Counted from the first letter of the stretch, positions 11,873 to 49,657 are shown. The stretch is 64,000 nucleotides of DNA from an uncultured Sphingomonas sp. (GCF_913774285.1 NZ_CAJYHX010000017.1:2873-66872), one strand, 5' to 3'. Made by a program: numbers and translations. Notes: a model not told the origin generated them from the sequence alone.

Positions 11873-12092
11873 GCCTCTTTCCCCCCCCCAGCGTCGGTTC
11901 CGCTCATAATGGGTGGCTGCGCGGAGCATAGTGCAAGTTGCGCGGGGTAAGATGGCGTATTGATCCATTTTGGAACTTGGGCACCATCTGCTCGCGCTCG
12001 GCGCGTTGATTTCAAGACAAATTCATGTTGAGGCCCGAACCGGGAATCTCATCGGGCGATTCCTATCGGCTGATTTGCAGCAGGGGGCGAGA

Positions 12093-16393: not shown

Positions 16394-16871
16394 AAATATC
16401 GCTGGCGAATCGAAGGGTTACTGAAGGTTCCGGCTGCAGTCTTCAGTGGTCTTCCGCGATAATTTTCGCTTAATTCTCGATGGCGGCACACGTCACGTCA
16501 GCGCAACGATGGCACGAAGTTGCAGGATTTCCTCCTCGTTGATTTTTCGCGCCTGGCATTGCTTTCCAACGTTGCGCGGGGGGAGCGTTCTTGCGTCGGT
16601 CTGACGCGCCGTTACGCGCAGCTGTTGTCCCGGTGCGGAAGCGCCCGGACCAGCCGGCGCCTTCCTCGCGCTGGGCAAGTAATCGGCGGTGCCAGCGCAG
16701 CGGGGCAACGTCGTGCGCGCCGTTAGCACCTGGCTAACGATATCTGGATATAGTCGATTAGGTCGTGCGGTTTAGCCTGCGAGGACCATAAGTCGTTGGG
16801 AGGCTTGGCGACGTGTCAGGGGAGAGGCGCTCTCGGGGAGCGCCCGGAACGGATTGCGCAGGGCGTCTGCC

Positions 16872-19467: not shown

Positions 19468-20214
19468 TCAGGGCGCTCGCTGCTCGGCGAGCGCCTCGAT
19501 CACCCGCTCGTATAGCCAGGCCTTGTCGGCAGTGCCGGCGAAAACATGGCTGGCGGTATCAAACTGCTTGCGGCGCACGCGGGTGCCGGCGGCGGCGTAG
19601 GCCGGCTTGTGCAGGAATTCGGCGAAGTCCGCGGCGATCTTGTCGCGGGTGGCGAGCAGTACCGTCATCGGCACCTCCGCCGCGGTGAACGCGGCGGCGA
19701 GTTCGCTGCCGAGGTTGCGATGGGTTTCCGGCCGCCGTGTCGCGACTCTGCCGATCACCTGCCGCATCCAGCCGCGCGCCGCTTCTCCCTCCTCGGCTTC
19801 TTCCGGCGGGGGGAGGGGGGCGACGATAACGGGATTTGCGAGCAGCAGCGCGTCAATCCGCGCCTGGGCATGGAACAGCGCAAGCGCCGTCGCGCCGTCG
19901 CCATTGCCGAACGCGACCACGCGCCGCAGTTTCGCCTCGCGCCGGAAGATGCTTGCAGCCGCAACGATGTCCGGCGCGCTTTCCAGAAAGCCCTGGTTGC
20001 TGCCCGCCGAATCGCCGACGCCGCGGCGATCGAAGCGGAACACCGGATAGCCCGCCGCCGCGATGCGATGCGCCAGCTGCGACATGCTGCGATGCGGCCC
20101 GCTGCGAATTTCGTTGCCGTTCGACACGATCAGCAGCCCGGTAGCGCCCGACGCGCTGTCCAGCGTGCCGACCAGCATGTCGCCCAGGCAGGGGAAGCCG
20201 ATCAGGCTTCGCAC
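19468..20214 (-). CDS. Alpha/beta hydrolase 1, exosortase A system-associated (appears degenerate)
   Basis: GTG start at 20214. GNEIRSGPHRSMSQLAHRIAAAGYPVFRFDRRGVGDSAG; the nucleophile elbow reads FGNGDGA. Confidence 0.8.
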   Translation of the reverse strand: MRSLIGFPCLGDMLVGTLDSASGATGLLIVSNGNEIRSGPHRSMSQLAHRIAAAGYPVFRFDRRGVGDSAGSNQGFLESAPDIVAAASIFRREAKLRRVVAFGNGDGATALALFHAQARIDALLLANPVIVAPLPPPEEAEEGEAARGWMRQVIGRVATRRPETHRNLGSELAAAFTAAEVPMTVLLATRDKIAADFAEFLHKPAYAAAGTRVRRKQFDTASHVFAGTADKAWLYERVIEALAEQRAP

Positions 20215-20843
20215 ATGCGCACCCAGGCGGCGAGGTCGTCGGCAAGCAGCGTCGCGAGATCGAGGTCGTTGTCGGGCGTCGGCTCGCGCCACAGCGCGCG
20301 GCCGGGGACGAGGCGATCGGCCGGACGGGTGTCGCCCTCCAGCCGGAGCGTGCGGGCGGGCTCGACATGGCAGTCGGGCAGTTCCTCTAGGAACGTGTCG
20401 GGCAGGCGATGGCCACCATAACCGGGCGCGTCGCCGATGCGGTGGATGCGGCGGAGCGCGCGGAGCAGCGCGTCCCCGGGTTGCGGCGCGAAGTGCCAGC
20501 GGCGGCGGATGACCACGCTGCCGTCAAGCAGGGCGCCGCTGCGGATGGCCATGGAGTAGGCGCGGCCGCCGGCGGTGCGCGCTGCCGCCGCGAAGCCCGC
20601 GCGCAGATCGGAGATGGCGATGCGCTCGCTGGGGATCAGGCTCTCGCCGGTGCCGGGAAGCTCGGGCAGCACGCCGGCGATGCCGTGGTTCTCGGCGAGC
20701 GACCGGAGGATCGTCGCGGCGAACCCGCGCATCCGGTTCGCCTCTTCAAACAGCGGCAACGCCGCGATGACGACGGGGCCGCTGCCGGGACCGAAGCGCA
20801 CCATCGCTTCGCGGCCGCCTGCCCAGTCATAGGGTTCGATCAC
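20202..20843 (-). CDS. Hydrolase 2-like protein, exosortase A system-associated
   Basis: ALPLFEEANRMR, GVLPELPGTGES, AIRSGALLD; sits between the ACP and hydrolase 1 genes. Confidence 0.75.
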   Translation of the reverse strand: MIEPYDWAGGREAMVRFGPGSGPVVIAALPLFEEANRMRGFAATILRSLAENHGIAGVLPELPGTGESLIPSERIAISDLRAGFAAAARTAGGRAYSMAIRSGALLDGSVVIRRRWHFAPQPGDALLRALRRIHRIGDAPGYGGHRLPDTFLEELPDCHVEPARTLRLEGDTRPADRLVPGRALWREPTPDNDLDLATLLADDLAAWVRMCEA

Positions 20844-21097
20844 CCCAATACCTTTTGCGCGGCGAAGCGGGTGAGCGTGCCGAAGCTCTCCAGCATCTCG
20901 CCGTCGACTTCGTCGTCTTCGATCAGGATGCCTAGCCGGTCCTCGATCTCGGTCAGCACGCCGGCGACGGCGAGCGAATCGAGTTCGGGCAGGGCGCCGA
21001 ACAGCGGCGTGGTCTCGTCGAACGCGGCAACGCGATCGTCGCTCAACCCGAGCACGTCGCGCAGCACGCCGCGGACGGTGGTTTCGATGTCGAGCAT
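20840..21097 (-). CDS. Acyl carrier protein (exosortase A cluster type)
   Basis: 3' part of ORF 20840..22585: MLDIETTVRGVLRDVLGL...LFGALPELDSLAVAGVLTEIEDRLGILIEDDEV, with DSL phosphopantetheine Ser; 85 aa, acidic. Confidence 0.9.
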   Translation of the reverse strand: MLDIETTVRGVLRDVLGLSDDRVAAFDETTPLFGALPELDSLAVAGVLTEIEDRLGILIEDDEVDGEMLESFGTLTRFAAQKVLG

Positions 21098-21184
21098 GGC
21101 TTCAGGCCGCAATGGGGTTCCCCTGCAAGAAATTTGCGCTTCCGTAAGGCTTGGCGGCGGCGCTGCCAAGACTATGGGTGGTGC

Positions 21185-22672
21185 ATGATCGCGCTCGATC
21201 CTGCCCCGCATCTTATAGACGCGCTGCCGCTGCGTGGCGCGCCGGACGCCGTTGCTTTGGAAGACAAGGCAGGCACGCTGACCTATGCCGAACTGGAGGC
21301 GGCGGTGGGCAGCATGGCGCATGCCCTCGCCGCGCATGGCCTGCCCGCGGGCGAGCGGGTGGCGAGCTGGCTGCCGAAGACCCGCACCGCGTGCCTGCTG
21401 CCGCTGGCCGGTCCCCGCGCGGGACTCGTCCATGTGCCGATCAACCCTGCGCTCAAGCGCGCGCAGGTCGCGCACATCCTGGCGGACAGCGGGGCGCGGC
21501 TGCTGGTGACGCAGCAGGCGCGGCTGGCGGCGCTCGAGCCCGGCGACGTGCCCGCCGATTGCCTGATCGTCACCGAAGAGGAACTGGTCGGCACCGACGC
21601 CCTGCCGCTCGCGAGCGGCGAACCCGATGCGCTGGCGGCGATCCTCTACACGTCGGGGTCGACCGGGCGGCCCAAGGGCGTGATGCTCAGCCACGCCAAT
21701 CTGTGGCTCGGGGCGATCAGCGTCGCGCATTACCTGAAGCTCGCACCGGAGGACCGGGTGCTGGGCGTGCTGCCGCTGAGCTTCGACTATGGCCAGAACC
21801 AGCTTTTCTCGACCTGGGCGGCGGGCGCGCGGGTGGTGCCGCTCGACTATCTCACCGCGCGCGACGTGGTGAAGGCGGTCGGGCGGTTCGGCATCAACAC
21901 GCTGGCGGGGGTGCCGCCGCTCTGGGTGCAACTGCTCGAGGCGGAATGGCCGGAAGAGAACACGGCCTCGCTCAAGCGGCTGACCAATTCCGGCGGCGCG
22001 CTGACCCGGCCCCTGGTGCAGGGACTGCGGACGCGTTTCCCCGGCGCCGACCTCTATCCGATGTACGGCCTGACCGAAGCGTTCCGCTCGACCTATCTCG
22101 ATCCAGGACTGGTTGACAAGCATCCGGAATCCATCGGCCGCGCCATTCCCTTCGCCGAGATCCTTGTCGTCGATGCCGAGGGCCGTCGCGCGCAGCAGGG
22201 CGAACTCGTCCATGCCGGGCCGCTGGTCGCCAAAGGCTATTGGCGCGATCCCGAACGGACCGCGCTGCGCTTCCGCCCGGCACCGGCCTTCGCCGAGCGC
22301 CAGGGCATGGCGGTATGGTCCGGCGATACGGTGACGGAGGATGCCGAGGGGTTGCTGCGCTTCGTCGGCCGTGACGACGAGATGATCAAATCCTCGGGCA
22401 ACCGGATCAGCCCCACCGAGATCGAGGAGGCCGTGGTCGCTGGGGGCGAGACCAGCGAGGCGGTGGCGTTCGGCGTCCCCGACCCGCGTCTTGGCCAGGC
22501 AATCCTGGTCGTCGTACGCGGCGACGGCAGCCGTGAGGACGAACTGCGCGCGCGGCTGCGGCGGGAACTGCCGAGCTTCCAGCAACCGGCGCGCTATGTC
22601 TGGCGGGAAAGCCTGCCGCGCAACGCCAATGGCAAGCTCGATCGGTCCGGGCTGAAGACGGAGATCCTATGA
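21185..22672 (+). CDS. Acyl-CoA ligase (AMP-forming), exosortase A system-associated
   Basis: ILYTSGSTGRPKGVMLSH, YPMYGLTEAFRS, WSGD, GRDDEMIKSSGNRISPTEIEE, LPRNANGKLDR. Confidence 0.9.
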   Translation: MIALDPAPHLIDALPLRGAPDAVALEDKAGTLTYAELEAAVGSMAHALAAHGLPAGERVASWLPKTRTACLLPLAGPRAGLVHVPINPALKRAQVAHILADSGARLLVTQQARLAALEPGDVPADCLIVTEEELVGTDALPLASGEPDALAAILYTSGSTGRPKGVMLSHANLWLGAISVAHYLKLAPEDRVLGVLPLSFDYGQNQLFSTWAAGARVVPLDYLTARDVVKAVGRFGINTLAGVPPLWVQLLEAEWPEENTASLKRLTNSGGALTRPLVQGLRTRFPGADLYPMYGLTEAFRSTYLDPGLVDKHPESIGRAIPFAEILVVDAEGRRAQQGELVHAGPLVAKGYWRDPERTALRFRPAPAFAERQGMAVWSGDTVTEDAEGLLRFVGRDDEMIKSSGNRISPTEIEEAVVAGGETSEAVAFGVPDPRLGQAILVVVRGDGSREDELRARLRRELPSFQQPARYVWRESLPRNANGKLDRSGLKTEIL

Positions 22673-23880
22673 ACGCGAAGCCCACCGGACCCATTCCCGC
22701 CGACTATGCCGTGCAATCGGTGCTGCAGATCTCCGGCCGCAGCGCCCGCGACTGGGCGGAAGCGGGTACGCCGCTCTATCTGTACGACGCGAACGCAGTG
22801 CAGGCGCGGATCGCGCGGTTCCGCGCGGCGATGCCGGACCGGATCGCGCTGCACTATGCGATCAAGGCCAATCCCTTTCCGCCGCTGATCGCCGCCATCG
22901 CTCCCGAGGTCGACGGCATCGACGTCGCCTCGGCGGGCGAGATGGACAAGGCGCTGGCGGTGATGGACGCCTCGGCGATCAGCTTCGCCGGGCCGGGCAA
23001 GCGCGATGCGGAGCTGGAAGCGGCGATCCGCGTAGGGGTGACGCTCAACCTTGAATCCGAGGGCGAAGCCGATCGCGCGCTGGCGATCGGCGATCGGCTG
23101 GGCATCACGCCGCGGCTGGCGGTCCGCGTGAACCCGGACTTCGAGCTGCGCGGCTCCGGCATGAAGATGGGCGGCCGCGCTTCGCCCTTCGGGATCGACG
23201 CCGCGCAGGTGCCCGCGCTCGTTCGGCGGCTGGTGGCAGCCGGCGCCGACTGGCGGGGCTTCCATATCTATGCCGGCTCGCAGGCGCTGTCGGCCGAGGC
23301 GGTAATCGAGACCCAAGCCGCCACCATCGGCCTCGCCGCGCGGCTGGCGGACGAGGCGGGCGCGCTGCCGCCGCTGGTCAACCTCGGCGGCGGCTTCGGC
23401 ATCCCCTATTTCCCCGGCGACCTGCCGCTTGATGTCGAGGCGGTCGGCGCGGCGCTTGCCGGCGAACTGGACCGCCTAGACACGCACTATGCGATCGAGC
23501 TCGGCCGCTGGCTGGTCGGCGAGGCGGGGATCTATCTGGCGCGGGTGATCGACCGCAAGGAGAGCCAGGGCGAGACCTTCCTCGTCGTCGATGGCGGGCT
23601 CCACCACCATCTCGCCGCGACCGGCAATTTCGGTACCGTTGTGCGTCGCAACTATCCCGTCGCCGTCGCGCATCGGATGCAGGACGCGCCGGAGGAGGTG
23701 GTCACCGTGGTCGGCCCGCTCTGCACGCCGCTCGACCGGCTGGCGGATCGCGTGGCGCTGCCCCGTGCCGAGGTAGGCGACCTGATCGCGATCTTCGCCT
23801 CCGGCGCGTACGGCGCCAGCGCCAGCCCGCAGGCGTTCCTCGGCCACCCGCCGGTTCGCGAGCTTCTGGCAGGAGCCTGA
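22669..23880 (+). CDS. PLP-dependent decarboxylase (Orn/DAP/Arg family), exosortase A system-associated
   Basis: HYAIKANP (PLP Lys), SFAGPGK, FHIYAGSQ, NLGGGFG, IELGRWLV, GPLCTPLD, GAYG; ATGA overlap with the ligase. Confidence 0.9.
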   Translation: MNAKPTGPIPADYAVQSVLQISGRSARDWAEAGTPLYLYDANAVQARIARFRAAMPDRIALHYAIKANPFPPLIAAIAPEVDGIDVASAGEMDKALAVMDASAISFAGPGKRDAELEAAIRVGVTLNLESEGEADRALAIGDRLGITPRLAVRVNPDFELRGSGMKMGGRASPFGIDAAQVPALVRRLVAAGADWRGFHIYAGSQALSAEAVIETQAATIGLAARLADEAGALPPLVNLGGGFGIPYFPGDLPLDVEAVGAALAGELDRLDTHYAIELGRWLVGEAGIYLARVIDRKESQGETFLVVDGGLHHHLAATGNFGTVVRRNYPVAVAHRMQDAPEEVVTVVGPLCTPLDRLADRVALPRAEVGDLIAIFASGAYGASASPQAFLGHPPVRELLAGA

Positions 23881-23973
23881 CGCCTAACGCTAAATTTACG
23901 CGTCCTGCGCCATAGCTCGCCGTCCGGCACGGGCGCGCGACACGCCGCCTCGCTGCCGCTTGGAGGCACGGCA

Positions 23974-24615
23974 ATGGCGGTTTCGTTCGGGATCAAGGCG
24001 GCGGCGACGCTGGCGCTGATGGCGCAGCTATCGGCGTGCGGCAGCGGCGGACCGCGTCCCGAGCTGCCCGCCGCGGGCTTCGTCGGCGCCAGGGAAGCGC
24101 CCAGCGACGAATATGTCATCGGCCCGCTCGACCATCTCAGCATCTTCGTGTGGCGGAACCCGGAGATCTCGACCAAGGTCCAGGTGCGCCCCGATGGCCG
24201 CATCACCACGCCCCTGATCAACGACATGCCGGCGGTGGGCAAGACCCCCGCGATGCTCGCCGACGACCTGAAGCTGGCGCTCAGCGAATATATCAAGGAC
24301 CCGATCGTCTCGGTGATCGTCGAGAATTTCTCGGGGACGTTCAGCCAGCAGATCCGCGTGGTCGGCGCGACCGAGAAGCCTGCCTCGCTGCCGTACCGCG
24401 CCAACATGTCGATCCTCGACGCGATGATCGCGGTAGGCGGCCTCAACGAATTCGCTGCAGGTAACCGCGCGCGGCTGGTGCGCTACGATCCGCAGACCGG
24501 CAAGCAGCGCGAGTTCAAGCTCCGCCTCTCCGATCTCCTGAAGAACGGCGACACCTCCGCAAACGTCCGGCTGGAGCCGGGCGACGTGATCATCATCCCG
24601 CAGAGCATGTTCTGA
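23974..24615 (+). CDS. Polysaccharide export lipoprotein (Wza-like, XrtA/PEP-CTERM type)
   Basis: Lipobox LSA-C, EYVIGPLDHLSIFVWRNPE, VRPDGRITTPLI, GGLNEFA, LEPGDVIIIP. Confidence 0.92.
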   Translation: MAVSFGIKAAATLALMAQLSACGSGGPRPELPAAGFVGAREAPSDEYVIGPLDHLSIFVWRNPEISTKVQVRPDGRITTPLINDMPAVGKTPAMLADDLKLALSEYIKDPIVSVIVENFSGTFSQQIRVVGATEKPASLPYRANMSILDAMIAVGGLNEFAAGNRARLVRYDPQTGKQREFKLRLSDLLKNGDTSANVRLEPGDVIIIPQSMF

Positions 24616-26135
24616 TGGGAAGCCTGTTCGACGAGGTCCGCAGCGCGATCCACGCGGTGTGGATGCGCCGCACGCTCGCGCTGGCGATCGCCTGGGTGGT
24701 ATGCGTGGTCGGCTGGGTGGCGGTGTCGCGCATCCCGGACAGCTATGAGTCCAAGGCGCGCGTGCTCGTCGAGCTGCGCCAGGTGCTGCCGAACGATGGC
24801 GGCGTGGCGGCCGCGGGCCAGCAGCAGGACATCGACCGCATCCGCCAGACGCTCACCAGTTCGGTGAACCTCGAAAAGGTCGTCCGCGGCACCGATCTGG
24901 CGAAGACGATCACCAAGCCGGCGGATCTGGCCGCGCGCATTGCCGGGCTGCAAAAGGCGATCAAGCTCACCGCCCAGCAGGACAATCTGTTCGAGATCGC
25001 GGTGACCGGCGCCGATCCGGCGATCTGCCGCCAGGTCGTCGAGAAGCTGATCGCGCTGTTCCGCGACAACAAGCTCGCCGACAGCCGCGACGAGAGCAGC
25101 CAGTCGCTCGCCTTTCTCGACCAGCAACTCGCCGAGCGCCAGCAGGCGCTGCAGGCGGCGGAGACCAAGCGCGCCGAATTCCAGTCGCGCTTCCTCGGCA
25201 GCCTGCCGGGCACCGGCTCGCTCGACGACCGGATCGGCGCGGCGCAGCAGCAGCTCCAGCAGATCGAAAGCGATCTCGCGGCGGCGCAGAGCGGCCTGAG
25301 CGCCGTCAACGCGCAGATGGCGGGGACGCCGGCCAGCGTGGCGGGGCAGGGTGGCGGTCCGGTAGGAACCGGCCCGGCGCGCGCCCGGCTCGCGGACCTG
25401 CAGGCGCAGCTTTCCGATGCCCGCGCGCGTGGCTTCACCGAGGCGCATCCGGACGTGGTCGCACTCAAGCGGCAGATTGCAGGGGCTCAGGCCGCCGCGG
25501 CGCGCGAGCCGAGCGGTGTTGGGGGCGGAGGCAGCTTCGCCAATCCGCTCTACCTCAGCCTGCGTTCGATGCAGGCCGACAAGGCCGCGCAGGTCGCAGC
25601 CCTCAGCCAACGCCGCGCGCAGATCCAGGGCGATCTCGCGGCGCTCAACGCCAAGCTGACCCAGGCGCCGCAGGCGGCCTCCGAGCAGGGGCAGATCGAC
25701 CGCGACTATCAGGTGCTCAAGGACCAGTATGCCAAGCTGCTCGCCGATCGCGAACAGCTGCGGATCAGCAGCCAGGCGCAGAGCCAGACCGATGCGGTGA
25801 AGTTCAGCGTCATCGACCCGCCGACCCAGCCGCGCAGCCCGAGTTCGCCCAACCGGCCGATGCTCCTCACCGCCGTGCTGGTCGCGGGGCTGGGCGCGGG
25901 CGTGGCGGCGGCATTCCTGCTCTCCAAACTGCGGACCACCTTCGACACTGCGACACGGCTCGAGCGCGCCAGCGGGATGCCGGTGATCGGCTCGATCGGC
26001 GAGGTGGTCACGCCCCGGCAGCGGGCGCGTCGCCGCAAGCAGCTCCAGCACTTCCTCGGCGGCGTAGCAGGCTTGGGCGTCGCCTATGCCGCGATCCTGC
26101 TGGTCGGCATGCTTCACCATGCTGCGGGGGCCTGA
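24615..26135 (+). CDS. Polysaccharide chain-length determinant (Wzc N-terminal/Wzz-like)
   Basis: N-terminal TM with PDSYESKARV, long coiled coils, FTEAHPDVV, C-terminal FSVIDPPTQP..PNRP plus TM. Confidence 0.9.
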   Translation: MGSLFDEVRSAIHAVWMRRTLALAIAWVVCVVGWVAVSRIPDSYESKARVLVELRQVLPNDGGVAAAGQQQDIDRIRQTLTSSVNLEKVVRGTDLAKTITKPADLAARIAGLQKAIKLTAQQDNLFEIAVTGADPAICRQVVEKLIALFRDNKLADSRDESSQSLAFLDQQLAERQQALQAAETKRAEFQSRFLGSLPGTGSLDDRIGAAQQQLQQIESDLAAAQSGLSAVNAQMAGTPASVAGQGGGPVGTGPARARLADLQAQLSDARARGFTEAHPDVVALKRQIAGAQAAAAREPSGVGGGGSFANPLYLSLRSMQADKAAQVAALSQRRAQIQGDLAALNAKLTQAPQAASEQGQIDRDYQVLKDQYAKLLADREQLRISSQAQSQTDAVKFSVIDPPTQPRSPSSPNRPMLLTAVLVAGLGAGVAAAFLLSKLRTTFDTATRLERASGMPVIGSIGEVVTPRQRARRRKQLQHFLGGVAGLGVAYAAILLVGMLHHAAGA

Positions 26136-26138
26136 GCG

Positions 26139-26993
26139 ATGAACGAACACAGCCCCAAGCGCTTCACCGGCTCGTTGATCCAGCGCGCGATCGCGATGAT
26201 GCCGGCACTGCCAGCGGAGGAGGCGCCCGCCAAGTCGCAGTCGGCACCACCCGTGCAGGATCGCCCGATGGTGCCGATCGACCGCAACCGTTTGGCCGCG
26301 GCCGGCATGCTGGTGCCCGGAGGCCCGATCACCCCGCTCGCCGAGGAGTTCCGCATGGTGAAGCGGCAGCTGCTGCTCACCGCGCGCGGCGTCGCCGGCG
26401 TCGATGCCGATCGCGCGCGGATGATCCTGGTCTGCTCGGCCCAGCCCGACGAAGGCAAAACCTTCTGCGCGATCAATCTCGCGCTCTCGATGGCGGCCGA
26501 GAAGGATGTCGAGATCCTTCTGGTCGACGCCGATTTCGCCAAGCCCGACGTCTCCAAGCGGCTCGGCATGGGCGAGGGGCCGGGGCTGCTCGATGCGCTC
26601 GATGGCCAGATCGATGTCGAGGCCTGCATCGTCGATACCGACGTGCCGCAGCTCGCGATCCTGCCCGCCGGCACCCGTAGCGTGAGCGATACCGAGTTGC
26701 TCGCGAGCGACGGTGCGCGGGCGATGCTCGATCGTCTGGCGGCGGCCAATCCGCGCCGCATCGTGATCTTCGATTCGCCGCCGGCGCTCGCGGCATCCCC
26801 GGCCTCGGTGCTGGCGCTGCATGTCGGCCAGACGATGATGGTGGTCCGCGCCGACCGCACCAGCGAGGAGGACCTGCGCGCCGCGGTCGCTGCGCTCGAT
26901 GGGTGCGAGCATATCCAGCTCGTCCTCAACGCGGTGTCATTCCAGCCTTCGGGCCGTCGTTTCGGCAGCTATTACGCGCAGGCGGGCCGGTGA
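26139..26993 (+). CDS. Tyrosine autokinase-like P-loop protein (split Wzc C-terminal domain)
   Basis: AEEFRMVKR, SAQPDEGKTF, LLVDADFAKP, VIFDSPP, C-terminal FGSYY. Confidence 0.88.
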   Translation: MNEHSPKRFTGSLIQRAIAMMPALPAEEAPAKSQSAPPVQDRPMVPIDRNRLAAAGMLVPGGPITPLAEEFRMVKRQLLLTARGVAGVDADRARMILVCSAQPDEGKTFCAINLALSMAAEKDVEILLVDADFAKPDVSKRLGMGEGPGLLDALDGQIDVEACIVDTDVPQLAILPAGTRSVSDTELLASDGARAMLDRLAAANPRRIVIFDSPPALAASPASVLALHVGQTMMVVRADRTSEEDLRAAVAALDGCEHIQLVLNAVSFQPSGRRFGSYYAQAGR

Positions 26994-28576
26994 TCCGTGG
27001 CGCGATCGTGCTGGCCGTCTGCGCCGCCGCGATCGTGCCCGCGGCCGCCCAGCGGCGCGCGACCGTCACCCCCTATATTGAGGTGAGCCAGGTCGCCACC
27101 GCCGAACTCAACGGCGGGGAGACGCTGACCTACTCGCAGCTCGGTGCCGGGCTCGACGGCAGCATCCGTACGCGTCGGGTGCAGTTGCAGGTGAGCTACC
27201 AGTATCAGCACCGCTTCACCGAGAAGGGCAGCCTGCAATCGGGCGACAGTCACAATGGCCTCGCCCAGGCGCGCATCACCGCCGCCCGCGGGCTGACGCT
27301 GGAGGCCGGTGCCGTCGCCACCCGTACCCGCACCGATGCGCGCGGCGATGCGCTGACCGGCAACGCCGCCAACGCGCGCAACCTGAGCCAGCTCTATTCG
27401 GGCACTATCGGTCCCAAGCTCGACACCCATGCCGGGCCGCTGTTCGTGCAGGGCGCCTATCGCTTCGGCTTTACCAAGGTCGACGACGGTACTGCGGCCG
27501 GCGTTTCCGCGACGCTGCCGCAGGTCGATCGCTTCGACCATTCCACCTCGCACGCAGTGAATGCCAGCATCGGCGCAAAGCCCGGCGCCGTCCTACCGAT
27601 CGGGCTCAGCGTCACCGGCGGGCTGGTGCGCGAAAATGCCAGCCAGCTCGACCAGCATTTTGCCAGCAGTTCGGGGCGCGGCGACGCGATCGCGCCGATC
27701 AGCCGCACCGTCGCGCTGGTCGGCGGCGCGGGGTACGAGCAGATCACCGTCCGTCAGCGCGATCCGCTGCTCGGCACCGACGGCAGGCCGGTGGTCGACG
27801 GGGCGGGGCGCTATGTCACCGATCCGGCATCGCCCGTGCGGATCGCCTATGATTTTGATGGCATGTTCTGGGACGGCGGTGTGCTCTGGCGTCCGAGCCG
27901 GCGGACCGCGCTCGAGGTACGGATCGGCCGCCGCTACGGGGCGATGCGCTATACCGGCAGCTTCACCTTCCAGCGGAACAACGGCAGCGGCATCCAGGTC
28001 GCGGTGTACGATACGGTCGAGACCTATGGCCAACAGGTCGGCGGCAGCCTCGCGGCGCTGCCGGTAGGCTTCGTCACCACCGCCGATCCGTTCGGTGTGC
28101 AGGCCGGCGCCTGCATCTACGGCACCAGCGGCGCGGCGGCGGGCGGCTGCATCGCCGGCGCTTTCTCCTCGGCGGCGACCGCAGCCTATCGCGGCCGCGG
28201 GATGACCGCCAATGCGGTGTGGAGCCGCGGCACGACGCGGCTCGGCGTGGGCGGCGGCTTTGCCCGACGTGACTTCCTCACCCCCATTGCCGCGAACGCA
28301 ACCGGCGGCAGCTGGGACGAGAGCTTCTATGCCCAGGCCTTTGCCGCGCTCGCCGCTGGCCGGGACGGAACGGTCGGGCTGAACCTGCTCGCCAGCTATT
28401 ATGACGGCGACATCCCCGGCAGCACCGCGGTGTTCGGCTGGGGCGCCAATACCGCCTATACCCGCCGCCTGGGGCATCTGAGCCTCACCGCAACGGCGGG
28501 CATCTACGGCTCGATGCGCGACGGCCCCGACCAGGCATCGGCACAGGCGCTGATCGGAGCGCGCTATGGTTTTTGA
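26990..28576 (+). CDS. Outer-membrane beta-barrel protein of the PEP-CTERM polysaccharide locus (TIGR03016-like)
   Basis: GTG start overlapping the upstream stop, signal peptide, VTPYIEVSQV, alternating beta-strand pattern, C-terminal ARYGF. Confidence 0.75.
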   Translation: MIRGAIVLAVCAAAIVPAAAQRRATVTPYIEVSQVATAELNGGETLTYSQLGAGLDGSIRTRRVQLQVSYQYQHRFTEKGSLQSGDSHNGLAQARITAARGLTLEAGAVATRTRTDARGDALTGNAANARNLSQLYSGTIGPKLDTHAGPLFVQGAYRFGFTKVDDGTAAGVSATLPQVDRFDHSTSHAVNASIGAKPGAVLPIGLSVTGGLVRENASQLDQHFASSSGRGDAIAPISRTVALVGGAGYEQITVRQRDPLLGTDGRPVVDGAGRYVTDPASPVRIAYDFDGMFWDGGVLWRPSRRTALEVRIGRRYGAMRYTGSFTFQRNNGSGIQVAVYDTVETYGQQVGGSLAALPVGFVTTADPFGVQAGACIYGTSGAAAGGCIAGAFSSAATAAYRGRGMTANAVWSRGTTRLGVGGGFARRDFLTPIAANATGGSWDESFYAQAFAALAAGRDGTVGLNLLASYYDGDIPGSTAVFGWGANTAYTRRLGHLSLTATAGIYGSMRDGPDQASAQALIGARYGF

Positions 28577-28588
28577 GAGACTGCACGC

Positions 28589-29653
28589 ATGATGGACGAT
28601 CATTACGGGCTGCGCGGCCGGCCGTTCCAGCTGACCCCTGATCCGCGCTTCTGGTTCGATACCGCCACGCACGGCAAGGCGATGGCCTATCTCGGCTATG
28701 GCCTCAGCCAAGGGGAGGGCTTCGTCGTCATCACCGGCGATCCGGGCGCGGGCAAGACCACGCTGCTCGGCCATCTGCTGGCAGAGCTGGACGGCGAACG
28801 GCTCAACGTGATCAAGATCGTTTCCACCCATTTGCGCGCCGACGACATGCTGCGGCTGGTAGCGCAGGGGCTCGGTCTGCCGGGGGATGATCTCTCTAAG
28901 GCCGCGCTGCTGCTGGCGATCGAGCGCGGGCTCCACGAGGTCGCCCGCGCCGGGCGCCGCACGCTGCTGGTGGTGGACGAGGCGCAGGCACTGCCGGGCG
29001 AGAGCCTGGACGAGCTGCGCATGCTCTCCAACTTCCAGGCCGGCGGCTATCCGCTGCTCCAGATCTTCCTGCTCGGCCAGCCCGAGTTTCGGCTGGTGCT
29101 CCAGCAGCCCGCCTTCGAGCAGCTGCGCCAGCGGGTGATCGCGATGCACCACCTCGCCCCGATGGAGGTGGAGGAGGTCGAGGCCTATCTGATGCACCGG
29201 CTGATGCTGGTCGGCTGGAGCGGCCGCCCGCGCTTCACCGCCGATGCGCTGGCGGCGATGCACCGCTGGTCGGGCGGCATCCCGCGCCGGCTCAACCAGC
29301 TGGCGAGCCGGGTGCTGATGTATGGCGCGGTCGAGCAGATCGAGAATTTCGGCGCGCCCGATGTCGCCGCGGTGATCGAGGATATCGAGCAGGAGGACGT
29401 GATCGAACCGGCCGCCGAGCCGACGGGCGAATCCGCCCCGCTGCGCCCGAGCCGCGTTGCCGCGCTGCGCGCGGTGCCGGAGGGCTCGGCAGAGACTCGG
29501 GCGCTCGAGCGCCGCGTCGCCGAGCTGGAGGCGCAGGTCGCCTCGCAGTCCGATGCGCTGCGCCGCGTGCTCTCGCTGCTGGTTGACTGGGTGGAGAAGG
29601 ATGAGGGCCGCAGCGGCATCGATCTCGACGCCCTGCGCGGTAGTGCTGCCTGA
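28589..29653 (+). CDS. ExeA-like AAA ATPase, XrtA/PEP-CTERM-associated
   Basis: YGLRGRPFQLTPDPRFWF, ITGDPGAGKTT, LVVDEAQ, LLGQPE, SGGIPRRLN. Confidence 0.92.
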   Translation: MMDDHYGLRGRPFQLTPDPRFWFDTATHGKAMAYLGYGLSQGEGFVVITGDPGAGKTTLLGHLLAELDGERLNVIKIVSTHLRADDMLRLVAQGLGLPGDDLSKAALLLAIERGLHEVARAGRRTLLVVDEAQALPGESLDELRMLSNFQAGGYPLLQIFLLGQPEFRLVLQQPAFEQLRQRVIAMHHLAPMEVEEVEAYLMHRLMLVGWSGRPRFTADALAAMHRWSGGIPRRLNQLASRVLMYGAVEQIENFGAPDVAAVIEDIEQEDVIEPAAEPTGESAPLRPSRVAALRAVPEGSAETRALERRVAELEAQVASQSDALRRVLSLLVDWVEKDEGRSGIDLDALRGSAA

Positions 29654-29656
29654 GCC

Positions 29657-30502
29657 ATGGGCGTGCGCAACGGCCTGTCGGTCGACGTCGAGGACTGGTT
29701 CCAGGTCGGCGCCTTCGAGACCACGATCGCGCGCGGTGACTGGGACGGGCTGGAGCGGCGCGTCGAGGCCAATACCGATCGCGTGCTGGCGCTGTTCGCG
29801 GAAGCGGGGGTGCTGGGCACCTTCTTCACGCTCGGCTGGGTGGCGGAGCGTCATCCGAAGCTGATTCGCCGCATCGCCGAGGCCGGGCACGAAGTCGCCA
29901 GCCATGGCTGGGACCATGCCCGCGTCTTCACGCTGACCCCCGACCAGTTCCGCGAGGATCTCGCCCGCGCCCGCGCCGCACTGGAGGATGCCGCGGGCGT
30001 CGCGGTGAACGGCTATCGCGCGCCGAGCTTCTCGATCGACCGGCGCACCCCCTGGGCGCATGCGGTGCTGGCCGAGGCGGACTATTGCTACTCGTCGAGC
30101 ATCGCGCCGATCGCGCATGACCATTATGGCTGGCCCGATGCGCCGCGCGCGCCGTTCCGGCCGCTGCCCGACGCGGGGCTGATCGAGCTGCCGATCACGA
30201 TCGCGCGGGTGCTGGGGCGCGAGGTCACCGCAGGCGGCGGCTTCTTCCGGCTGCTGCCGCAGGGCGTCACCGACCGCGCGATCCGCGCCGCCAACGGGAG
30301 AGGCGAGGCGGCGATGTTCTATTTCCATCCCTGGGAGATCGACCCCGGCCAGCCGCGGGTCCGCGGGGCGCCGCTCAAGTCGCGCCTGCGCCATTGTGCC
30401 CGACTGGGTGCGATGCAGGGCAAGCTGCGGACCCTGCTCGGGACGCACGACTGGGGCCGGGTGGATGCCATCGCCGCGCAGGCGGCGGAGCGGCTGGCGT
30501 GA
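29657..30502 (+). CDS. Polysaccharide deacetylase, XrtA system type
   Basis: LSVDVEDWFQV, TFFTLGWVAE, HEVASHG, GYRAPSFS, FYFHPWEIDP. Confidence 0.92.
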   Translation: MGVRNGLSVDVEDWFQVGAFETTIARGDWDGLERRVEANTDRVLALFAEAGVLGTFFTLGWVAERHPKLIRRIAEAGHEVASHGWDHARVFTLTPDQFREDLARARAALEDAAGVAVNGYRAPSFSIDRRTPWAHAVLAEADYCYSSSIAPIAHDHYGWPDAPRAPFRPLPDAGLIELPITIARVLGREVTAGGGFFRLLPQGVTDRAIRAANGRGEAAMFYFHPWEIDPGQPRVRGAPLKSRLRHCARLGAMQGKLRTLLGTHDWGRVDAIAAQAAERLA

Positions 30503-31551
30503 GCCTGTCCGTCCGCACGGCCGACCTGCACGATGCGGCCGAGTGGGGGCGGCTCTCCGCCTGGGTCGACGCGCAGGCCGATGCCACGCCGTTTCACCTG
30601 CCGGAATGGAGCATGGCGGTGGCGAAGGGATGCCGCCAGCGCAGCCACTATCTGGTGGCGGAGGGCGCGGGCGGGCGGATCGTCGGGGTGTTGCCGCTGA
30701 CGGCCGTCGTCTCGTCGCTGTTCGGCCGGGCACTGGTCTCGACCGGTTTCGGCGTCGGCGGCGGCATTCTCGCCGAGCAGGGGTTTGCGGTCGCCGCGCT
30801 CGGGCAGGCCGCCTGGAGCCTCGCCACGCGCCTGCGCTGCCCGAGCCTCGACCTGCGCGGCGGCCCCTGTCCGGGGGAGGACTGGGCGCGCGACGACACG
30901 ACCTATCTGGGCTTCGTCCGCCGGCTAGCGGCCGATGACGAAGCCGAACTGCTCGCCGTGCCGCGCAAGCAGCGCGCCGAACTGCGCAAGGCGCTCGCCG
31001 CCGATCTGGCGGTGGAGGTTGCAGCCGACCGGGCCGCCCGGCGCGCGCACTACACCGTCTATGCCGAAAGCGTCCGCAATCTCGGCACCCCGGTCTTTCC
31101 GTCGGCGCTGTTCGCGGCGGTGCTGGAGGCGTTCGGGGCGGAGGCGGACATCCTCACCGTCCGGCACCAGCGCCGCGCGGTGGCGAGCGTGCTCAGCCTC
31201 TACTGGCGCGGCACCGTCTATCCCTATTGGGGCGGCGGGACCGAGGCGGCGCGGGGGCTGCGCGCCAATGACCGGATGTATTTCGCGCTGATGGCCCATG
31301 CCCGCGCGCGCGGCTGTTCGCGGTTCGACTTCGGCCGCTCCAAGGCCGGCACCGGCGCGGCGGCGTTCAAGAAGAACTGGGGCTTCGCGCCCGAGTCCCT
31401 AGTCTATTTCTCGCGGCATGCCGAGGGTGCCGCACCGCGCAGCATCAACCCGCTCGATCCGAAGTTCCGGTTGCAGATCGCGGCATGGAAGCGGCTGCCG
31501 CTCTGGGCGGCCAACCGCATCGGGCCGCTGCTCTCGCGCGGGCTCGGCTGA
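30499..31551 (+). CDS. FemAB-family protein, XrtA/PEP-CTERM-associated
   Basis: GTG start at 30499. TPFHLPEW, LFGRALVS, YAESVRNLGTPVF, PYWGGG, ANDRMYFALM, FDFGRSK, FKKNWGF. Confidence 0.9.
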   Translation: MSLSVRTADLHDAAEWGRLSAWVDAQADATPFHLPEWSMAVAKGCRQRSHYLVAEGAGGRIVGVLPLTAVVSSLFGRALVSTGFGVGGGILAEQGFAVAALGQAAWSLATRLRCPSLDLRGGPCPGEDWARDDTTYLGFVRRLAADDEAELLAVPRKQRAELRKALAADLAVEVAADRAARRAHYTVYAESVRNLGTPVFPSALFAAVLEAFGAEADILTVRHQRRAVASVLSLYWRGTVYPYWGGGTEAARGLRANDRMYFALMAHARARGCSRFDFGRSKAGTGAAAFKKNWGFAPESLVYFSRHAEGAAPRSINPLDPKFRLQIAAWKRLPLWAANRIGPLLSRGLG

Positions 31552-32816
31552 TGGGCGACATCCTGTTCCTCGCCCACCGCATGCCCTTTCCGCCGGATCG
31601 TGGCGACAAGATCCGGGCCTATCACCTGCTGCGCCATCTCGCCCGCGACCACCGCATCCATCTCGTCGCCTTCGCCGACGATCCCGAGGACCTGCAGCAC
31701 CAGGACGGCCTTGCGGCTCATACTGCGACACGCACGATCGTCTGGCGGAAGGCGCCGACCGTCTGGACGGGCGCGCGCGCGTTGCTGCAGCGCCGGCCGG
31801 TATCGCTGGTCGCCTTTGCCGACCCGGCAGTACGACGTGCGGTGAATGCGCTCCTGGAAGCGCAGCCGATCGACACGATCTTCCTCTTCTCCAGCCAGAT
31901 GGCACAGTATCTGCCGCCCGCTCCCAAGCAGCGGGTGATCATGGACTTTGTCGACATGGATTCGGCCAAGTTCGCCGCCTATGCAAAGGGCGGGCGTGGG
32001 GCCATGGCCTGGGTGCACAAGCGCGAGGCGTCGCTGCTGCTCGCTCATGAGCGCCGCGTCGCTGGCCTATCCGATGCCAGCCTGTTCGTGAGCGACGCCG
32101 AGGCGACGCTGTTCCGGGAGCGCACCAACGCCCCCCGCGTACATGCGATCGAGAACGGCATCGACACGGTGTTCTACGATCCCGCCGGCCGCTTCGAGCC
32201 GCTCGGCGGGGAGGGGCCGTTGCTCGTCTTCACCGGGCAGATGGATTACCGGCCGAACATCGAGGCGATCCGCTGGTTCGCCGAAAAGGTGTTCCCCCGC
32301 GTCCGACGCGCCCATCCCGACGCGCGGCTCGCGGTCGTCGGCCGCGCGCCGACCCCGGCGGTCCAGGCGCTGGCGGAGCGACCCGGCGTTCTCGTCACCG
32401 GCAGCGTTCCCGATGTGCGCGACTGGCTCGCCGCCGCCGCGTTGGTGGTGGCGCCGCTGCAACTGGCGAGGGGCATTCAGAACAAGGTGCTCGAAGGCAT
32501 GGCGATGGCGCGGGCGGTGGTTGCCTCGCCGGCCGCGGCCGAGGGGGTCGACCATGCCGGCACGCTCTGTGTCGCCGAGGGCGCAGATGCGTTCGGCGGC
32601 GCCGTGCTGCGCCTGCTCGATGACCCCGATACCGCCGCGGCACTCGGCGCCGCTGCCCGCGCGCGCGTGATCGCCCGCTACAGCTGGGACGCGCGGCTGG
32701 CACCGCTCGACGCGCTCCTCGAGGCGCCTGCAGGCCACCTCCATCAGCGGGGTGGCGCAGATGCCGATCGCTTGGTACCGGGCCGCTACGATGCGGATCA
32801 TGAACGGCGACGATAG
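31551..32816 (+). CDS. GT4 glycosyltransferase (TIGR03087-like) with an aberrant C-terminal extension
   Basis: ILFLAHRMPFPPDRGDKIR, DFVDMDSAKF, FTGQMDYRPN, APLQLARGIQNKVLEGMAM, YSWDARLAPLDALL, then ~30 atypical residues. Confidence 0.9.
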   Translation: MGDILFLAHRMPFPPDRGDKIRAYHLLRHLARDHRIHLVAFADDPEDLQHQDGLAAHTATRTIVWRKAPTVWTGARALLQRRPVSLVAFADPAVRRAVNALLEAQPIDTIFLFSSQMAQYLPPAPKQRVIMDFVDMDSAKFAAYAKGGRGAMAWVHKREASLLLAHERRVAGLSDASLFVSDAEATLFRERTNAPRVHAIENGIDTVFYDPAGRFEPLGGEGPLLVFTGQMDYRPNIEAIRWFAEKVFPRVRRAHPDARLAVVGRAPTPAVQALAERPGVLVTGSVPDVRDWLAAAALVVAPLQLARGIQNKVLEGMAMARAVVASPAAAEGVDHAGTLCVAEGADAFGGAVLRLLDDPDTAAALGAAARARVIARYSWDARLAPLDALLEAPAGHLHQRGGADADRLVPGRYDADHERRR

Positions 32817-32850
32817 GGGACGGATAGGCGACCGCGAGGGCATGCGCTGA
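32761..32850 (+). pseudogene. Probable deletion scar / remnant at the usual xrtA (exosortase A) position
   Basis: 29-codon mini-ORF MPIAWYRAATMRIMNGDDRGRIGDREGMR* whose TGA overlaps the amidotransferase ATG (TGATG). Identity as an xrtA remnant is inferred from synteny only. Confidence 0.35.
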
Positions 32851-34742
32851 TGTGCGGCATTGCCGGCCTCTTCTATCCCGGGCTCCCCAAGCCGATCGAC
32901 CCCGCCCGCATCGTCGCGATGAGTGATGCCCAGGCGCACCGCGGACCCGACGGCTCGGGCGTGTGGTGCGTGGCGGGGGTCGGGCTCGGCCATCGCCGGC
33001 TGGCGATCATCGACCTCGAAGGCGGCGTCCAGCCGATGGCGCTGCCAGACCAGAGCCTCGCCGTCACCTTCAACGGCGAGATCTACAATTTCCGCGAGGT
33101 CCGCGCCGAGCTGGAGGCGCTGGGCGCCCGCTTCGTCACCGACAGCGACACCGAGGTGCTGCTTCACGGCTGGCGCGCCTGGGGGCCGGACCTGCTCGCC
33201 CGGCTGAACGGCATGTTCGCCTTTGCACTCTACGACGCGCCCGGCCAGAGCCTGTTCCTCGCCCGCGACCGCTTCGGGGTGAAGCCGCTCCATTATGCCG
33301 AACTGGCCGACGGCGCGGTCGCCTTCGCCTCGGAGCTGAAGGGCCTGCTTGCGCATCCGCTGCTCCGCCGCGCCGCCGATTTGCGCGCGGTCGAGGACTA
33401 TCTGGCGCTCGGCTATGTGCCCGACGACGCCAGCATCGTCGCGGGCGTGCACAAGCTGCCGGCGGGGCATTTCCTGCTGCTCCAGCGTGGCCGCCCGGCG
33501 CCGCAGCCGGTGCGCTGGTGGGATATCGACTTCACCCGCCGCGCCACCGGCCGCACGCGTGACCTCAAGGCCGAGTTGATCGAGCGGATGCGCACCGCCG
33601 TCCGCTCGCGGATGATCGCCGACGTGCCGCTGGGCGCGTTCTTGTCGGGCGGTGTCGACAGCTCGGCGGTCGTCGCGCTGATGGCCGAGCGCAGCAAGGC
33701 AGCGGTGAAGACGTGCACGATCGGCTTCGACGAAGCCGGGCTCGACGAGACCGCCCATGCGGCGAAGGTTGCGGCGCGCTTCGCCACCAGCCATCGCACC
33801 CGCACCGTGGGGGCGGAGGATTACGGGCTGATCGACACGCTGGTCGCCGCCTTCGATGAGCCCTTCGCCGATGCCTCGGCACTGCCGACCTATCGCGTCT
33901 GCCAACTCGCCCGCGAGAGCGTGACCGTCGCCCTTTCCGGCGACGGGGCTGATGAGGCGCTGGCCGGATATCGCCGCCACCGCTTCTTCGCCGTCGAGGA
34001 GCGGGTGCGCGGCCTCCTCCTGCCGGACGTGCGGGCGCGGCTCTTCGGGCGGCTGGGGACGCTCTATCCCAAGGCGGATTGGGCGCCGCGGCCGTTCCGC
34101 GCCAAGACGACCCTGCTCGCGCTCGCCGACGATGGGGCGGAGGCCTATGCCAAGGCGGTGGGCGTCACCACGCCGACGCTCCGCAACCAGCTCTACAGCG
34201 ACACCGCGCGTGCGGCGCTCGATGGCTATCGCGCCGAGACGCGCTATGTGGAGACGATGCGGCACGCGCCCGCGCGCGATGCGCTCGATCGCGCGCAATA
34301 TGCCGATATCCGCCACTGGTTGCCGGGCGACATTCTCACCAAGGTTGATCGCACCAGCATGGCCGTGGGCCTGGAGGCACGCGAGCCGCTGCTCGATCAC
34401 CGCCTCGTCGAGTTCGAGGCGAGCCTGCCGCCGTCGCTCCGCCTTCGCGGTGGGCAGGGCAAGTGGCTGATGAAGAAGGCGCTGGAGCCCTGGCTGCCGC
34501 GCGAGATCCTCTATCGACCCAAGATGGGCTTCGTCACCCCGATCAGCGCCTGGTTCCGCCACGCGCTGGCCGAGGAGGCGGCGGCGCTCGCCCGTTCGCC
34601 GCTGCTGCTCCAGAGCGGCTGGTTCGAGCCGCGGACGATCGCCCGGCTGGCCGAGGACCACCGCGCCGGCCGCGCCGAGCACGGCCGCACGCTGTGGCAG
34701 CTGGTGATGCTGGAACGCAGCCTCGCCAGGCTGTTCGGGTAG
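32850..34742 (+). CDS. Asparagine synthase-family amidotransferase, XrtA/PEP-CTERM-associated
   Basis: MCGIAG N-terminal Cys, HRGPDG, GHRRLAIID, FNGEIYNF, FLSGGVDSS, LSGDGADE, LEAREPLLDH, RPKMGF. Confidence 0.93.
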   Translation: MCGIAGLFYPGLPKPIDPARIVAMSDAQAHRGPDGSGVWCVAGVGLGHRRLAIIDLEGGVQPMALPDQSLAVTFNGEIYNFREVRAELEALGARFVTDSDTEVLLHGWRAWGPDLLARLNGMFAFALYDAPGQSLFLARDRFGVKPLHYAELADGAVAFASELKGLLAHPLLRRAADLRAVEDYLALGYVPDDASIVAGVHKLPAGHFLLLQRGRPAPQPVRWWDIDFTRRATGRTRDLKAELIERMRTAVRSRMIADVPLGAFLSGGVDSSAVVALMAERSKAAVKTCTIGFDEAGLDETAHAAKVAARFATSHRTRTVGAEDYGLIDTLVAAFDEPFADASALPTYRVCQLARESVTVALSGDGADEALAGYRRHRFFAVEERVRGLLLPDVRARLFGRLGTLYPKADWAPRPFRAKTTLLALADDGAEAYAKAVGVTTPTLRNQLYSDTARAALDGYRAETRYVETMRHAPARDALDRAQYADIRHWLPGDILTKVDRTSMAVGLEAREPLLDHRLVEFEASLPPSLRLRGGQGKWLMKKALEPWLPREILYRPKMGFVTPISAWFRHALAEEAAALARSPLLLQSGWFEPRTIARLAEDHRAGRAEHGRTLWQLVMLERSLARLFG

Positions 34743-49623: not shown

Positions 49624-49657
49624 CCTGTTGGCGGGGGTCTGGCGCTACAAGGCCTCC

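Follow-up and report, generated by a model that had tools for sequence, protein, structure and literature searches.

A probable XrtA/PEP-CTERM exopolysaccharide locus of Sphingomonas maintained after excision of its exosortase gene

The stretch of DNA analysed here, referred to as the window, comprises 64,000 nucleotides of an uncultured Sphingomonas sp. (GCF_913774285.1, NZ_CAJYHX010000017.1:2873-66872) and contains a polysaccharide locus in which a carrier protein, an adenylating ligase and a decarboxylase adjoin genes for polysaccharide export and tailoring. The window is rich in GC (about 0.66-0.71 around this locus) and its raw lists of open reading frames (ORFs) are full of spurious frames; genes were chosen with a filter on GC content at the third codon position (GC3), and families were assigned with Pfam and NCBIfam models. 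The filter left a single clean gene series in the region of interest, which reads as follows in window coordinates:

19468-20292, minus strand: homologue of hydrolase 1 (TIGR03100-like; 156.7 bits against a cut-off of 168.45)
20202-20843, minus strand: divergent homologue of hydrolase 2, placed by position and a weak orthologue match; first ORF of the region as delimited by a preliminary description
20840-21097, minus strand: stand-alone acyl or aminoacyl carrier protein (ACP) with a DSL phosphopantetheine site
21134-22672, plus strand: adenylating ligase (ligase_PEP_1, VinN-like; TIGR03098, 626.1 bits against a cut-off of 592.35)
22669-23880, plus strand: pyridoxal phosphate (PLP) decarboxylase (dCO2ase_PEP1, BtrK-like; TIGR03099, 547 bits against a cut-off of 478.45)
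23974-24615, plus strand: Wza-like polysaccharide export protein (TIGR03027)
24615-26135, plus strand: chain-length determinant, the periplasmic half of a split Wzc (TIGR03007)
26139-26993, plus strand: tyrosine autokinase half of the split Wzc (TIGR03018, 204 bits, below the cut-off of 231)
26903-28576, plus strand: outer-membrane protein (weak TIGR03016 match)
28589-29653, plus strand: XrtA/PEP-CTERM system-associated AAA ATPase (TIGR03015, 316 bits against a cut-off of 324)
29657-30502, plus strand: polysaccharide deacetylase (TIGR03006) with His-x3-His and Arg-Pro motifs
30394-31551, plus strand: FemAB-family protein (TIGR03019)
31485-32816, plus strand: glycosyltransferase stp1 of family GT4 (TIGR03087), with a tail of about 27 residues that runs into the deletion scar
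32722-32831, no strand: deletion scar of about 110 nt without counterpart to the xrtA-epsI insert of about 1.68 kb in relatives
32850-34742, plus strand: AsnB-type amidotransferase (TIGR03108) that begins Met-Cys-Gly, with an N-terminal Cys2

Eight of these genes score above the curated NCBIfam cut-offs for families of the XrtA system (models TIGR03006-03019, 03027, 03087, 03098-03101, 03108 and 03109), including the ligase, the decarboxylase and the polysaccharide genes matching TIGR03027, 03007, 03006, 03019, 03087 and 03108, and the stretch is therefore probably the core of the catalogued XrtA/PEP-CTERM (EpsH type 1) exopolysaccharide locus of Sphingomonadaceae, without XrtA. The tyrosine kinase, in which Walker A, A' and B motifs are present, and the AAA ATPase fall just under their cut-offs, and the outer-membrane protein is a weak match whose orthologues occupy the same position in every full locus examined. 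The carrier protein and the two hydrolases lie on the minus strand and diverge from the plus-strand series that extends from the ligase, with its true start probably near 21185, to the amidotransferase. The preliminary description, whose interval left the hydrolase 1 gene just outside and whose gene list did not contain the AAA ATPase, had regarded the catalytic motifs as intact. The genes are real and this statement holds, given that GC3-supported ORFs with family matches were obtained and that the DSL site, the PLP lysine in YAIK, the deacetylase motifs and the Met-Cys-Gly start are all present. In agreement with the same account, Pfam and NCBIfam searches of the window found no flippase, polymerase or priming glycosyltransferase, and no exosortase either; the other window genes are housekeeping genes.

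Gene order is that of XrtA-positive relatives except for a segment of about 1.6-1.7 kb between stp1 and the amidotransferase gene, which is reduced here to about 110 nt. This slot encodes an XrtA-EpsI fusion in the congener G109 (327 bits on XrtA, 89 bits on EpsI), and in the window the end of stp1 is 34 nt away from the start of the amidotransferase gene. The scar has no counterpart in G109. The tail of stp1 that reads into it is conserved in two sister species and cut short in S. trueperi, where the protein has 416 aa. Exosortase A (TIGR03109) does not reach its cut-off of 208 bits anywhere in the assembly, which is 99.96% complete and has a sole exosortase match of 139 bits, namely XrtV. 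By ligase identity, the closest genomes are Sphingomonas sp. NFR04 (95%), S. trueperi (93%) and a Sphingomonas metagenome-assembled genome (MAG; 91%), all three of which are devoid of XrtA and keep only an XrtV-like gene each. Each of their loci aligns collinearly with the window along 15.3 kb (86-91% nucleotide identity), again with no insert. The four XrtA-less genomes form a clade in the ligase tree (support 100/98), with G124, which has XrtA and an XrtV-like gene, as sister and the XrtA-only G109 as the next branch. The xrtA-epsI fusion was excised in the common ancestor of the window genome, NFR04, S. trueperi and the MAG. A further genome, G066, stands apart from this clade on the ligase tree and has lost XrtA independently; it has kept ligase, decarboxylase and ACP (hereafter the trio) together with the whole polysaccharide block, both hydrolases are absent, and its stp1-amidotransferase gap is 19 nt.

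Pairwise ratios of nonsynonymous to synonymous substitution rates (dN/dS) between the window and the three relatives, calculated for 14 genes at dS of 0.13-0.71, range from 0.03 to 0.25 across all 14, with the ACP at 0.03-0.04. None of the 14 ORFs is disrupted in any of the four species compared, the only exception being the shorter stp1 tail in one of them, and 12 of the 14 genes show no rate acceleration relative to the XrtA-positive congener G109 (difference in identity to outgroups of -5 to +4.6 percentage points). Since the deletion is common to four species and dN/dS is this low in every gene, the locus is maintained by selection. This bears out the earlier view that a carrier-protein pathway persists in an intact polysaccharide locus without xrtA and without accumulating inactivating mutations, to which G066 adds a second, independent case.

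The two remaining genes of the 14 are those of the hydrolases. Hydrolase 1 stays below the cut-off of its family (hydr1_PEP, TIGR03100) and only its N-terminal half fits the model; the motif GNCDA reads GNGDG here, and the protein has lost about 40 residues from its interior. In an alignment of 14 sequences, i.e. the window copy and 13 other orthologues, the elbow cysteine is invariant in all 13 others and replaced by glycine in the window copy, with Asp and His retained. The glycine is found in all four XrtA-less species, and the cysteine is kept in the XrtA-positive sister G124, so that the loss of XrtA is tied to the loss of the hydrolase 1 elbow cysteine in this clade, which is a new observation. 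An AlphaFold model of the G109 protein (pLDDT 81) places Cys110 alone between strand 103-109 and helix 111-119, corresponding to a nucleophile elbow, and the invariant Asp215 and His247 after the last two strands; Foldseek searches with this model returned generic alpha/beta hydrolases only. Identity to three outgroups is 41-42% for hydrolase 1 of the window versus 54% for that of G109, and 29-32% versus 34-40% for hydrolase 2. The window copy of hydrolase 2 has an internal deletion of about 20 residues and gave no match to hydr2_PEP (TIGR03101) at E 0.01, and its G109 orthologue, 45-50% identical, scores 44 bits on this model against a cut-off of 202.75; its position and this weak G109 match are what suggest homology of hydrolase 2 to its family. 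Decay of both hydrolases as pseudogenes was considered and rejected, as both ORFs are intact in four species and dN/dS within the XrtA-less clade is well under 1 (0.15-0.20 for hydrolase 1, 0.03-0.09 for hydrolase 2). A separate irregularity was seen in the XrtA-positive genome G107 (C1:548069-548852), where hydrolase 1 fits the family model in two separate pieces and looks like a frameshifted or split gene.

The same parts sort differently across the family, which was sampled with 121 genomes from 112 genera. The ligase is present in 110 of the 121, and XrtA above cut-off, FemAB and hydrolase 1 in 84 each. Hydrolase 1 occurs in 82 of the 84 XrtA-positive genomes and in two of the 37 XrtA-negative ones (the window genome and the draft G039). 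The ligase, on the other hand, is found in 28 of these 37, and seven of the 28 have no exosortase-like match at all. FemAB without XrtA was seen only in the window genome and G066, and some exosortase is present in all 84 genomes that have the polysaccharide block. Around 26 sampled genomes have the trio without XrtA and without the polysaccharide block. All 16 loci inspected from genomes lacking XrtA and FemAB contain ligase and decarboxylase without hydrolases or polysaccharide genes, ten of them visibly beside trxB, and tblastn recovered the ACP in 13 of the 16; it is otherwise conserved beside the ligase in most relatives. Downstream genes of the trio-only loci are unrelated convergent sets, and the upstream genes of one locus, among the three without a detected ACP, encode BamB and Der. 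On the ligase tree, the trio-only states require at least four changes on supported branches. Hydrolases follow XrtA, while trio and polysaccharide block are not strictly tied to it. The proposal in the preliminary description that the trio's chemistry serves the polysaccharide itself is therefore too narrow, considering the approximately 26 genomes that have the trio alone.

We consider it likely that the locus consists of three separable modules and that selection keeps what remains after the loss of xrtA-epsI. ACP, ligase and decarboxylase would form an aminoacyl-carrier trio. The export, chain-length, kinase, outer-membrane, ATPase, deacetylase, FemAB, stp1 and amidotransferase genes would make, tailor and export a polysaccharide, in cooperation with products of genes at other sites in the genome (a priming transferase, stp3 and a polymerase-like gene). 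XrtA-EpsI and hydrolases 1 and 2 would constitute a protein-sorting part, of which XrtA is gone here and hydrolase 1 persists without its elbow cysteine.

Candidates for the missing functions were found on other contigs. The priming transferase EpsB_2 adjoins a small PEP-CTERM protein, ManC and PrsK on contig C1, and contig C8 contains stp3, the polymerase-like PEP_O_lig_1 and a membrane acyltransferase (Acyl_transf_3, C8:101857-103008, beside the polymerase-like gene and stp3); TIGR03013, 02916, 04063 and 03097 all score above cut-off outside the window in the same genome. A second polysaccharide locus (C33:143037-147613) contains XrtV (348 bits, cut-off 313) and EpsI-V; XrtV is the genome's only exosortase and is accompanied there by EpsE/F/G-like export, chain-length and kinase genes, with a WelK-like glucuronosyltransferase nearby. 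The genome also encodes 19 PEP-CTERM domains above the TIGR02595 cut-off, and the proteins bearing them may be XrtV clients. The statement that the pathway occurs without exosortase thus holds for the locus and its slot, but not for the genome with its XrtV, EpsI-V and 19 PEP-CTERM proteins. In a comparison drawing on genomes G109, G002, G034, G068, G019, G112, G006, G066, G065 and G041, numbers of PEP-CTERM domains follow XrtV-like genes, with 19 and 11 in XrtV-only genomes, 0, 0, 3 and 2 in XrtA-only genomes and 0 in the absence of any exosortase. Within the window itself, another membrane acyltransferase of the Acyl_transf_3 type (11970-13178) lies 7 kb upstream of the locus. An HD-GYP-type protein (HD_5 and DUF3391; 16854-18128) is encoded two genes upstream and a GGDEF-EAL protein (49628-51625) further downstream, both being possible cyclic di-GMP inputs to polysaccharide production.

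Two other explanations for a locus without its exosortase have to be considered. A silent relic that decays after exosortase loss would fit the missing elbow cysteine and some 40 residues of hydrolase 1, a hydrolase 2 that no longer fits its family model, and an stp1 tail that runs into the scar. Nevertheless, the ORFs have remained intact in four species but for that tail in one, at synonymous distances of 0.13-0.71 with dN/dS of 0.03-0.25, and twelve genes show no acceleration, which makes decay extremely improbable. Alternatively, XrtV might have taken over the task of XrtA, so that the polysaccharide of this locus still receives PEP-CTERM proteins via XrtV and EpsI-V. The genome has XrtV, EpsI-V and the 19 PEP-CTERM domains as well as PrsK and the PEP-CTERM-associated priming transferase, and an XrtV-like gene has been kept in all four XrtA-less species, with the sister G124, which has both exosortases, looking transitional. 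G066, the other XrtA-less genome with a polysaccharide block, carries XrtV-like genes too, and every sampled genome with the FemAB block has some exosortase. However, XrtV is embedded in a polysaccharide locus with export, chain-length and kinase genes of its own, XrtV-like genes occur in many genomes without the XrtA block (e.g. G006), and PEP-CTERM numbers track XrtV and not XrtA (0-3 in XrtA-only versus 11-19 in XrtV-only genomes). Moreover, the hydrolase 1 cysteine was lost along with XrtA, and G066 has lost both hydrolases, so that an XrtA-specific step seems to have been dropped and not rerouted. We therefore regard a takeover by XrtV as possible but doubtful, and continue with the three-module organization.

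Among solved structures, BtrK, the L-glutamyl-[BtrI ACP] decarboxylase, comes closest to the decarboxylase of the trio (235 bits, E 1.7e-68), compared to 137 bits for the best diaminopimelate (DAP) decarboxylase, and the PLP lysine in YAIK aligns with that of BtrK. Over its full length, the ligase resembles amino-acid adenylating enzymes in a search of solved structures; LgrA ranks at the top of this search only because the scores of its two A domains add, and was dismissed as closest relative. When the query is restricted to the pocket region, VinN ranks first among solved structures (E 1.5e-11), and the alignment is free of gaps in both stretches that hold contact residues, including the R318 loop that corresponds to the short beta13-beta14 loop. 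Ligase residues D218, Y219, S286 and R318 align with VinN D230, F231, S299 and R331 (chain numbering of the alignment offset by 16). Among 131 ligase homologues, which include those of trio-only genomes and of beta- and gammaproteobacterial XrtA systems, D218, R318 and the catalytic K501 are invariant, and the S286 position is Ser or Thr in 129. According to the accounts of the VinN pocket in PMC7756342 and PMC11253843, Asp230 binds the alpha-amino group of the substrate and Ser299 and Arg331 its alpha-carboxyl group, while space for a beta-amino acid is created by Phe231 and the short beta13-beta14 loop. The substrate that VinN attaches via the beta-carboxyl to the stand-alone ACP VinL is 3-methylaspartate or, weakly, aspartate, and VinO decarboxylates it on this carrier (PMC11284099). 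BtrK likewise needs a carrier-bound substrate (PMC7857480), and the same logic of carrier-bound decarboxylation has been described for FlvN/L/O, CtaD/E/F and BtrJ/I/K (PMC11350588) and the BolO/BolC/BolN trio of Burkholderia gladioli (PMC7756342).

Taken to act on one substrate, ligase and decarboxylase would handle an amino acid, likely aspartate, that is loaded by its side chain and decarboxylated on the ACP. The ligase would adenylate L-aspartate at the side-chain carboxyl and load it onto the ACP as isoaspartyl-S-ACP, from which the BtrK-like PLP enzyme would remove the free alpha-carboxyl to give beta-alanyl-S-ACP, an amine-ended acyl donor. By homology, this is the most likely product of the trio, with glutamate or 3-methylaspartate as less likely substrates. 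We infer that the beta-alanyl group is probably passed on to the polysaccharide, where it would be accepted by a hydroxyl or an amine, for example a group that the deacetylase has exposed.

This scheme departs from the one proposed earlier, in which the ligase activates a separate acid, the decarboxylase converts a free amino acid to a free amine, and both are joined to or on the polysaccharide. Separate substrates would agree with the NCBIfam name of the ligase (acyl-CoA ligase) and with the fold of the decarboxylase, shared with Orn/DAP/Arg decarboxylases that mostly act on free amino acids. Yet the decarboxylase is far closer to the carrier-dependent BtrK (PMC7857480) than to any free-substrate enzyme (235 bits versus at most 137 for DAP decarboxylases), the ligase has kept the VinN contact residues, i.e. 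the amino-group-binding Asp of amino-acid adenylating enzymes and the carboxylate-binding Ser/Arg pair, and each context examined shows the three genes as a single unit, which leaves two separate substrates quite improbable. A different substrate within the same trio logic deserves more weight, although we still rate it as rather unlikely: glutamate would yield gamma-aminobutyryl-S-ACP and meso-diaminopimelate lysyl-S-ACP, and 3-methylaspartate is the third candidate. BtrK, the closest solved decarboxylase, acts on gamma-glutamyl-ACP, LysA is the next-best NCBIfam family of the window decarboxylase, and VinN itself prefers 3-methylaspartate. Against these options, BtrJ is not among the solved relatives of the ligase, whose pocket is closest to the aspartate-type VinN with a gap-free R318 loop, no glutamate mutase was seen in the locus, and plain aspartate is used by BolO, FlvN and CtaD (PMC7756342, PMC11350588).

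A further role can be envisaged, namely that in Sphingomonadaceae the trio goes beyond polysaccharide tailoring and also, or instead, provides the beta-alanine from which pantothenate and coenzyme A are made, as a non-orthologous displacement of aspartate 1-decarboxylase (PanD). Only five of the 121 family genomes have PanD above cut-off; these five belong to the 11 that lack the trio, and PanD is absent from the 110 trio-bearing genomes, so that the sample comprises five genomes with PanD only, 110 with the trio only, six with neither and none with both. The window genome has PanC (C28:183142-183966) and is without PanD, and in three PanD genomes panD adjoins panC- or panB-like genes (PanD loci L171-L174). 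The retention of the trio beside trxB even without XrtA and polysaccharide genes was likewise counted in favour of displacement. In a 301-genome sample of the phylum, six genomes that do not belong to the class have a ligase above cut-off, only one of the six has PanD, and ligase-less members of two of the six genomes' families do have PanD. Four sampled trio-bearing genomes from two beta- or gammaproteobacterial families are without PanD, and in one of these families both PanD-positive members are without the trio. Nonetheless, perfect complementarity of PanD and trio fails, as three complete genomes with PanC have neither. In a SecA tree built from tblastn alignments, PanD lineages appear in at least two well-separated places. 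The family shows only two to four independent PanD events, and the independent pairs contrasting PanD with trio on supported branches number two, too few for significance. The absence of PanD is also common in alphaproteobacteria. The anticorrelation is therefore a hint only, and we judge a displacement of PanD by the trio unlikely.

Several points weigh against the three-module reading with a beta-alanyl-forming trio. Substrate and product are deduced from homology at 30-40% identity and from four pocket residues. The phyletic counts are of related genomes representing few independent events, and describe a pattern and not a statistic. In three trio-only loci (L020-L022, in G009, G120 and G048), tblastn gave no ACP adjoining the ligase, and no conserved transferase was found next to the trio in trio-only genomes. 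Furthermore, XrtV could be standing in for XrtA, and purifying selection on both hydrolases in the absence of XrtA may mean that describing them as XrtA-coupled is too simple.

The locus is of a known kind but in a new and informative state. Exosortase-A systems are widespread among environmental and floc-forming bacteria and, to our knowledge, no chemistry has been described for their accessory genes (those of the ligase, the decarboxylase, the ACP and the two hydrolases), which have catalogue names only. The XrtA-less clade amounts to a natural xrtA knockout that has outlived speciation and sorts these accessory genes into two groups. It makes hydrolase 1, an alpha/beta hydrolase with a Cys-Asp-His triad, a candidate partner in the exosortase anchoring step, and homology to BtrK and VinN combined with the phyletic sorting makes the chemistry of the trio concretely testable. 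New here are the association of hydrolases 1 and 2 with XrtA, the occurrence of the trio alone in about 26 sampled genomes and, as a hint concerning PanD, the lack of any co-occurrence of PanD and trio.

Among described systems, the XrtA/PEP-CTERM exopolysaccharide system (Haft et al. 2006, PMC1569441) is the obvious counterpart, with the same families in the same order as in XrtA-positive Sphingomonadaceae and with PrsK, the priming transferase EpsB_2, stp3, a polymerase-like gene and PEP-CTERM proteins elsewhere in the genome. It differs in that XrtA and the fused EpsI are absent from slot and assembly, leaving only XrtV at another locus, and in that hydrolase 1 has no cysteine here. We found no literature linking exosortase, decarboxylase and carrier protein, and Haft et al. 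2006 (PMC1569441) make no mention of these genes. The combination of an ANL-type adenylating enzyme, a stand-alone ACP and a PLP decarboxylase is shared with VinN/L/O (vicenistatin), FlvN/L/O (fluvirucin), CtaD/E/F (closthioamide) and BolO/BolC/BolN (bolagladin). Their products enter the assembly lines of polyketides or non-ribosomal peptides, whereas the neighbours here are polysaccharide or housekeeping genes, and the locus contains no polyketide synthase, non-ribosomal peptide synthetase, protecting-group ligase or VinK-type transferase. Closest to the decarboxylase is the butirosin system (BtrI/BtrJ/BtrK), where BtrK acts on an amino acid held by a small carrier and the decarboxylated product ends up N-acylating an amino sugar (PMC7857480, PMC11350588). 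Unlike in butirosin, the window ligase is an ANL adenylating enzyme with a VinN-like pocket and without BtrJ among its solved relatives, and the predicted substrate is aspartate instead of the glutamate of BtrK. Finally, DltA is among the weaker matches of the ligase, and although DltABCD has no decarboxylase and the window locus neither an MBOAT protein (DltB) nor DltD, the proposed pathway resembles the D-alanylation of teichoic acids in that a carrier-protein ligase and a small carrier would provide a surface polymer with an amine-bearing aminoacyl group.

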